Assembly (NCBI RefSeq): GCF_001677475.2 | Contig: NZ_CP012498.1 | Source: Escherichia coli | GTDB taxonomy: Bacteria > Pseudomonadota > Gammaproteobacteria > Enterobacterales > Enterobacteriaceae | Length of the DNA stretch: 64,000 nucleotides | Strand: one strand, 5' to 3' | Shown here: positions 35,985-37,560 of the stretch, one piece after another | Layout: every line of letters starts with the position of its first letter | How positions within the stretch are numbered: the stretch's first letter is position 1 | Position numbers and translations under genes: made by a program | Notes under the pieces: generated by a model | Told to the model about the DNA's origin: nothing | The model's input: the letters and a program-made list of their open reading frames with translations, nothing else | The model's database searches: none

Positions 35985-37180
35985 GTCAACAAAAACTGGC
36001 CACCGCGTTAGAGTTTTTCCAGTATCGATTTTCCGATTCGTTTGGGGGTAACCCACCGTTATATTCGTGCGGTCTTAGTGCGCTGTAATATCCAACGATA
36101 TAGTCCGTTATGCGTGAGCTGCCTCGCTGAAGCTTACGTAACCCACCACCGGCATCCATTCGTTCTTCAGACTCCTGAAGAAGCGTTCCATTGGGCTGTT
36201 ATCCCAGCAGTTTCCGCGCCGGCTCATACTCTGCCTGATCTGGTATCGCCACAATAACTGCCGGAACTGCCTGCTTGTATAATGACTGCCCTGATCGCTG
36301 TGGAACATCACCCCGCCGGGCTTACCACGGGTTTCCCATGCCATTTCCAGCGCTTTCATGGTGAGCCTGCTGTCCGGCGAGAACGACATGGCCCAGCCCA
36401 CTGGTTTTCTTGCGAACAGGTCGAGAACAACGGCGAGGTACGCCCGGCGCTTACCCGTCCAGATACAGGTCACATCACCGCACCACACCTGATTTGGCCC
36501 GGTCACGGCGAACTGCCGTTCAAGGTAGTTAGGGATAGCAACATGTTCATGACCACCACGTTTATACCGGTGAGTCGGCTGCTGACAGCTGACCAGCCCC
36601 AGCTCTTTCATGAGCCTGCCAGCAAGCCAGCGTCCCATCTGGTAGCCTCTCCGGGTTGCCATTGTGGCAATGCTTCTTGCTCCGGCCGAACCGTGGCTGA
36701 TGCCATGTAGCTCAAGTACCTGACTGCGTAATACAGCCCGTCTGCCGTCTGGTTTTTCAGGACGGTTTTTCCAGTATCTGTAGCTGCTGCGATGAACCCC
36801 GAACACATGGCAGAGTGTGGCCACAGGATAATGCGCTCTGAGTTTCCCGATTATCGAGAACTGTTCAGGGAGTCTGACATCAAGAGCGCGGTAGCCTTTT
36901 TTAATATTTCATTCTCCATTTCAATGCGTTGTAGCTTTTTCCTCAGCTCACGTATTTCGATTTGTTCTGGTGTTATCGTAGAGGCTTTTGGTGTTTTGCC
37001 CTGACACTCATCACGCAGTTGTTTGACCCATCTTGTCATTGTGGAAAGGCCAACATCCATAGCTTTGGCGGCATCTGCCACCGTGTAGTTCTGGTCAACA
37101 ACCAGTTGAGCGGATTCGCGTTTAAACTCTGCGCTGAAATTTCTTTTTTCATTGAAGCACCTGTGTTGTTCTGAGGTGAG
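35985..37180 (-). mobile_element. IS911-like element (IS3 family); orfB 36108..36824 has a 3' frameshift; orfA is fused in-frame to an upstream foreign fragment
   Basis: OrfA tail [30 protein letters not shown] ... [17 protein letters not shown] and Orf[25 protein letters not shown] ... recalled as IS911; the OrfB C-terminus continues in another frame after 36108. Confidence 0.8.
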
Positions 37181-37560
37181 CATATCACCTCTGTTCAGGT
37201 GGCCAAATTCAGTGTGCCACTTCACTTTCCCGAGGTTCGGCAGCTCTGTCCGCAGCCGTCGAATCTCTTTCAGTACATCAGGATGCCAGTGCTTTTTTCG
37301 TCGCACCAGAGGCGTTTTACTGTGCGGGATAAGACCTTCAGGCCCGCCCTTGTTCAGCAACTGACGCCACCAGTAAAGCGTACGGCAGGACACGCCAAAC
37401 GCTTCAGAAGCCGCAGAAATACCGTGTTTATCCCAGAAGTGCTGAGTCTTCATTCTCATTGTTGCCATATCAGCCATCACTGAAAGCCTCAACGCATAAT
37501 CGGCTGTTTGGTAGTACTTAGGATAGCCAACCATCAGGTGCTGCATTTGCATGATGCAAT
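37150..37560 (-). mobile_element. Transposase N-terminal HTH fragment (IS481-like?), interrupted by the IS911-like element
   Basis: N-terminal 130 aa of ORF 36851..37552 ([29 protein letters not shown]...) resembles a transposase HTH region; family uncertain. Confidence 0.3.

Follow-up and report, generated by a model that had tools for sequence, protein, structure and literature searches.

Nested, truncated and frameshifted IS copies, together with fusion ORFs in mosaics of IS pseudogenes, are routine on the large plasmids of Escherichia and Shigella. IS911, a member of the IS3 family, makes a direct target duplication of 3 bp, sometimes of 4 bp. It has inverted repeats (IRs) of 36 bp, and its OrfA is a regulator of 100 aa with an N-terminal HTH and leucine zipper common to OrfAB (PMC2909936). 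The reference used here is the intact IS911 copy of the E. coli D1 chromosome (L003), which is flanked by the target-site duplication AAG and annotated by PGAP as 'IS3-like element IS911 family transposase, programmed frameshift'.

The second system of interest is an unnamed element of the IS481 family. We delimited it, at 1096 bp, from two intact copies, one on a Salmonella Poona plasmid (pATCCBAA1673_01, transposase WP_023213433.1; L004) and the other on an E. coli plasmid (pLR-21-1_2, WP_227465143.1; L005). The two copies are 99.6% identical, have imperfect IRs with ATATTGCAATT in common and carry 5-bp target duplications, AAACT and CCTCC, respectively.

Both systems are found in a stretch of 64 000 nucleotides of E. 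coli DNA (NCBI RefSeq assembly GCF_001677475.2, contig NZ_CP012498.1), referred to below as the window. It contains a truncated IS481-family element with a defective IS911 nested in it, both of already known kinds, and a 233-aa ORF that runs from one into the other. This ORF is very probably an accidental fusion within a decaying pile of IS on an E. coli plasmid of the IncFIB type. The exact protein has already been deposited, on partial contigs, as 'transposase, partial'.

Composition of the chimeric ORF

The features of the locus are listed by their positions in the window, followed by the segments of the ORF.

35978..36013, minus strand: inverted repeat at the right end of IS911 (IRR; length 36 bp), abutting the plasmid par backbone at 35977
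35978..37224, minus strand: defective IS911 copy, 1247 bp, 98.96% identical to the intact 1249-bp copy
35986..36159, minus strand: displaced C-terminal orfB frame, a 57-aa ORF past the orfB frameshift
36108..36824, minus strand: orfB remnant, a 238-aa ORF with the rve/DDE core present
36851..37552, minus strand: chimeric ORF with an ATG start, 233 aa (ORF list and reading of the sequence; exact protein also in other assemblies)
36896..36902, minus strand: programmed -1 frameshift heptamer A AAA AAG, intact, at the end of orfA; the orfB frame follows
37144..37152, minus strand: native orfA ATG (37152..37150) and A6 run (37149..37144); A7 in intact IS911
37181..37183, minus strand: ATG within the IRL, in frame and preceded by the SD-like GAGGTG at a distance of 4 nt; NCBI calls the protein P0004 from this ATG on partial contigs
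37189..37224, minus strand: IS911 left inverted repeat (IRL), 36 bp, translated within the fusion linker
37225..37611, minus strand: left-end stump of the IS481-family element, 387 bp, 94% nt identity to the intact elements (L004, L005)
37610..37654, plus strand: hok-like toxin gene remnant, last 14 codons (HREVTASLTYESYGK) plus stop
Codons 1-109 of the ORF: N-terminus of an IS481-family transposase, 96% aa identity to the first 109 residues of the intact 348-/357-aa transposases
Codons 110-135 of the ORF: 26-aa linker, translated from the IS911 IRL and 5' leader
Codons 136-233 of the ORF: residues 3-100 of IS911 OrfA, bearing R->C and P->T

A preliminary description of this DNA had reported a 233-aa minus-strand ORF in which about 130 aa of a different transposase continue without a stop into IS911 OrfA. 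The ORF is present as described, in the ORF list and in the sequence, and OrfA is indeed joined without a stop, entry being at OrfA residue 3. The foreign origin of the upstream part is also borne out, but the foreign segment is only 109 aa long, the remainder being the IS911-derived linker.

Scans with Pfam and NCBIfam models place two unrelated transposase N-terminal modules in the one frame. The IS481-type module is recognized by HTH_28 (aa 39-79, E = 4.5e-12), by LZ_Tnp_IS481 (5.5e-7) and by the IS481-family model NF033577 (aa 33-132, model positions 2-101, 1.2e-17). The NF033577 score of 64 bits is below the full-length cut-off of 224 bits because only a fragment of the transposase is left. 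The OrfA-type module of IS3/IS911 is covered by HTH_Tnp_1 (aa 136-207) and by the IS3-family model NF033516 (aa 142-224). Since these two real coding segments supply 207 of the 233 codons, the chimeric ORF is not a chance ORF. The sole stretch that is open by luck is the 26-codon linker; by our own estimate, the odds that 26 random codons contain no stop are (61/64)^26, or about 0.29.

The terminus of the IS911 IRL, TGAAGTGG, lies inside the ORF, exactly at the boundary between the modules. Alignment with the IS911 reference, the check proposed earlier for finding the exact left end of the element, locates it at 37224. This position and the IS481-family identity refute the reading in which the upstream 130 aa naturally extend the N-terminus of an IS911 variant. 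The uninterrupted frame alone speaks for such an extension; the IRL terminus within the ORF, the 96% identity of the upstream 109 aa to IS481-family transposases and the existence of a 1096-bp element with its own IRs and target duplications leave it a negligible probability.

The upstream partner is the left end of the unnamed IS481-family element. The stump corresponds to nt 1-387 of the 1096 bp and retains the left IR (TGTGTAAGTTCACAGAGATATTGCAATT), the Shine-Dalgarno sequence (SD; AAGGGGAG) and the transposase start. The SD, the 8-nt spacer, the ATG and the left end itself are the same as in the intact elements; the likeness extends over the first 109 codons (94% nt and 96% aa identity) and to the position beside a hok gene. 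Unlike the complete element, the window keeps these first 387 bp only: about 710 bp, with the DDE (rve) domain and the right IR among them, are missing, and the stump encodes just the N-terminal third of the transposase, with the N-terminal HTH/leucine-zipper region present. The remainder, which an inversion would have left elsewhere in the window, was sought throughout it and no further match was found.

The downstream partner resembles IS911 in its nucleotide identity (98.96%), its 36-bp IRs, the orfA/orfB layout, the A AAA AAG site and OrfA residues 3-100. Over 1249 aligned columns it differs from the intact E. coli D1 copy by 11 substitutions and two single-base deletions. None of these 13 differences lies inside either repeat, and IRL and IRR both begin with TGAAGTGG. 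The published IRR oligonucleotide (PMC2909936) and the window IRR differ at two positions (CCGAGTT versus CCGCGTT). What sets the window copy apart from IS911 is a lost orfA start (A7 to A6), an orfB cut short by a C deletion and the lack of a 3-bp duplication; its OrfA differs by a foreign N-terminal extension of 135 aa and by two substitutions. The C was lost from orfB at about 36112 (GCC to GC); the shifted frame runs into an early TAA at 36110..36108, so that OrfAB lacks its last 43 aa. The OrfA part has two changes relative to the reference, both of them non-synonymous. By its identity, IRs and frameshift site the element is an IS911; by its orfA, its orfB and its target site it is not an intact mobile copy.

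Origin of the fused frame

There is no target-site duplication at the window IS911, whose left flank is AAG and whose right flank is ATT, whereas the control copy of E. coli D1 (AAG/AAG) and the copy in CP088521.1 (GGAC/GGAC) do have duplications. The right flank is not the rest of the IS481-family element. It is plasmid backbone downstream of a parA/parB-like pair, homologous up to position 35976 to an IS-free ETEC plasmid, in which the sequence runs on into parM. Simple insertion with target duplication is ruled out by the AAG/ATT flanks and by the par backbone on the right. As the flanks of the IS911 are of two origins, we infer that the original insertion was followed by a deletion associated with IS911 or by recombination of two IS911 copies. 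The preliminary description was therefore right to place IS911 inside another IS, but the present arrangement is not the product of a simple insertion.

In intact IS911, the start of orfA reads ATG AAA AAA AGA, with a run of seven A. With A7, the frame opened at the IS481 start crosses the IRL and stops at a TAA eight codons past the orfA ATG, giving an ORF of 143 aa. With A6, the body of OrfA enters the read-through frame, and the native orfA ATG heads an out-of-frame ORF of 38 codons.

ORFs of 143 aa, with A7 kept, occur at the same IS481::IS911 junction in a series of relatives (P0003, P0008, P0011, P0014; L009-L015). At least 19 plasmid-like contigs of E. coli carry the A7 junction together with the window's par right flank; their neighbouring genes are those of the window, encoding a C58 peptidase on one side and ParB-like and ParA proteins on the other. 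The ancestral read-through ORF is represented by EIG83324.1 (E. coli 1.2741) and KOA25582.1, at loci with the same junction and flanks as the window (98.4-99.3% nt identity). Unlike the window, these loci have A7 intact, with the ORF ending after 143 aa and OrfA retaining a start of its own. The closest A7 relative (L015) is 99.3% identical to window 38220..34700, and A7 versus A6 is the sole indel in 3.5 kb. The orfB deletion and both OrfA substitutions are common to the two sequences.

It had been proposed that the insertion of IS911 itself created the in-frame fusion. This can be discarded, since the same junction with A7 gives a 143-aa ORF only. The 143-aa ORF at the A7 junction and the single indel that separates the window from its closest A7 relative indicate that the insertion came first and made only the read-through ORF, and that the 233-aa fusion arose later, by deletion of a single A.

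The A6 allele is limited to a handful of 100%-identical assemblies, and the A7 ancestor is commoner. Three assemblies (GCA_002516285.1, SRR17945688 and ERR3309123) match the window at 100% identity across the site, and the A6 protein allele is also found in NCBI records from further isolates (P0004, P0005, P0007). The decisive difference is one base in a homopolymer, so a miscall of the A7 run in sequencing or assembly comes to mind. However, two of the three identical assemblies come from separate public read sets, and several protein records of other isolates carry the same allele, which makes an artefact extremely improbable.

A search for the exact junction in 5426 complete E. coli genomes and PLSDB gave no record with at least 80% coverage at high identity. 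The sole match with 82% coverage in that search, CP088521.1 (92%), goes back to a relative of IS911 that inserted independently. This relative (L001, 3546-4800; 92% identity to the window copy) is cleanly flanked by a GGAC duplication and interrupts the homologous transposase gene of the IS481 family, its insertion point being only 23 bp upstream of that in the window. Targeting by IS911 of an IR-like site in the IS481 gene found no support: the best match scores 9, a value reached by 125 of 300 shuffles.

We propose the following course of events. A 1096-bp IS481-family element would have sat beside a hok toxin gene, and IS911 inserted at codon 109/110 of its transposase gene. A deletion or an IS911-IS911 recombination may then have exchanged all sequence beyond the right end of IS911 for the par region, so that 387 bp of the IS481 element remained and the target duplications of IS911 no longer matched; the mechanism of this step is deduced from the flanks. 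Loss of a C in orfB shortened the transposase by 43 aa, at a time when the read-through from the IS481 start comprised 143 codons. Finally, a narrow lineage including the window lost one A of the A7 run, putting the native start out of frame and lengthening the read-through to 233 codons. Comparison with the relatives documents the insertion of IS911, the loss in orfB and the loss of the A.

A second, independent OrfA fusion is located in Shigella flexneri 2930-71 (EGJ97836.1, 125 aa; L017, 2501-2878). As in the window, a 1-nt deletion near the orfA start puts OrfA in the read-through frame of the IRL. In contrast to the window, the upstream partner is an IS3-family orfB fragment, the deletion changes AGAAAT to AGAAT, and a later +1 insertion truncates the product. 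Because the IRL and leader of IS911 are open in the -1 frame, OrfA fusions can recur: any -1 indel near the orfA start joins OrfA to translation from outside. The Shigella case fits mutational noise in A-rich runs, with the IRL open in that frame by chance.

Expression and possible function

A simple consensus scan of 36800..38000 revealed no sigma-70-like promoter. The IS481 left end, the SD and the ATG are as in the intact elements, so it is plausible that the 233-aa ORF is translated at the low level of an IS481 transposase gene. The hok-like remnant, which is cut off by the IS481-family left end (37611), is divergent from the chimeric ORF and cannot, on account of this orientation, read into it. 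On transcripts entering from upstream, the in-frame ATG at 37181..37183 could start an OrfA variant of 110 aa.

If the IS481 start is still used, the product would be a low-level protein with two HTHs, in which the HTH and leucine zipper of OrfA follow an extension of 135 aa. An N-terminal TrxA tag on OrfAB[1-149] weakens IR binding without abolishing it (PMC2909936). By analogy with this tag, the extension would probably leave a weakened OrfA-like protein, and such a putative protein could bind weakly to IS911 ends or pair with OrfAB of other copies.

A rival idea is that the fusion is a selected inhibitor or modulator of the OrfA type, with an additional IS481 HTH and expression driven by the signals of the IS481 transposase, which damps the transposition of IS911, and perhaps of the IS481-family element, in trans. 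In its favour, the fusion keeps the HTH and leucine zipper of OrfA (residues 3-100) together with a complete IS481 HTH_28, the SD and start codon of the IS481-family gene are undamaged, IR binding persists in OrfAB[1-149] with an N-terminal tag (PMC2909936) and there is the independent fusion in Shigella. That -1 shifts arose twice independently at the orfA start might, in principle, point to recurrent selection rather than to homopolymer mutability. We nevertheless consider a selected regulator unlikely. The allele occurs in a handful of 100%-identical assemblies only, with a more widespread A7 ancestor; the R->C and P->T changes in the OrfA part, shared with that ancestor, suggest relaxed constraint; orfB is frameshifted in the same element; the Shigella fusion has itself been shortened by a further +1 insertion; and the consensus scan found no promoter.

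The pattern of decay and the narrow distribution among identical sequences lead us to judge that the 233-aa ORF is probably a neutral by-product rather than a selected regulator. The altered OrfA-type regulator envisaged in the preliminary description would be physically possible, but the sequence shows no sign of selection for it. Selection is opposed by the restriction of A6 to identical sequences, by the non-synonymous nature of the OrfA changes and their presence in the closest A7 relative, and by the decay of the element.

A cross-family regulator, produced from the IS481 transposase signals, in which the IS481 HTH would serve as a tether to IS481-family ends while the OrfA HTH and leucine zipper would bind IS911 ends or sequester OrfAB, seems to us more doubtful still, and very unlikely. 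If it were real, one decayed element would dampen two IS families in trans, and the recurrent -1 shifts at the orfA start, in the window and in Shigella, would be a repeated route to host-driven expression of OrfA. The fusion carries little biological weight and its practical value lies in annotation, where this ORF is best marked as a mosaic pseudogene made up of an IS481-family fragment and a defective IS911, not as a new transposase or regulator.

Plasmid surroundings

The 1096-bp IS481-family element lies directly against hok toxin genes in unrelated plasmid contexts. On the Salmonella Poona plasmid (L004, 2346-2501) it is 5 bp from the hok ATG, with the duplication AAACT. On E. coli pLR-21-1_2 (L005, 2779-2954) the duplicated CCTCC is the hok Shine-Dalgarno sequence. 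In the window, the element's end abuts the last 14 hok codons and the flank reads CCTCCC. The pair 'IS481 family transposase | Hok family toxin' is listed together in many plasmid matches. These observations suggest either that the element prefers the translation-start region of hok as a target or that insertions disrupting hok there have been selected.

A second, internal IS911 fragment (IS nt 250-932), at 62311..62993 on the plus strand, matches the first copy in its variant residues. On its two sides are an IS21-type istA/istB pair and an ORF of the IS110 family (59997..62248 and 63275..63823), and its end coincides exactly with the point at which IS911 is interrupted by an IS110-family element in the related plasmids (L009-L014). 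The likely origin, on this evidence, is duplication and rearrangement of one IS911::IS110 ancestor. Because of this IS911::IS110 rearrangement, short-read contigs break at window position 36294.

Between the hok remnant and the C58-peptidase-like gene, the window carries an intact IS630-type transposase gene (38321..39352, 343 aa, within 38221..39400). The C58-peptidase-like gene (39397..39870) encodes 157 aa, and its relatives in L009-L012 encode a longer peptidase of 181 aa. These relatives are without the IS630 insertion, and their homology to the window begins at 38220. The IS630 insertion probably truncated the C58-peptidase-like gene in the lineage of the window.

An Rfam scan of 35500..38500 gave one sub-threshold match only, to RNA-OUT, and nothing related to the chimeric ORF. 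The match (38251..38321, minus strand; 28.1 bits, gathering score 41, E = 0.016) is situated immediately outside the start of the IS630 ORF and is probably due to chance.

The backbone at 28000..35914 shares 97% identity with the IncFIA/FIB plasmid pCFSAN004179G of E. coli 08-00022 and contains genes for RepB, a tyrosine recombinase, ParA and the heat-stable enterotoxin ST-I; genes for type VI secretion and an AvrPphF-like effector are located nearby. On the basis of this identity and gene content, the window is most likely part of a large virulence-type plasmid of E. coli.
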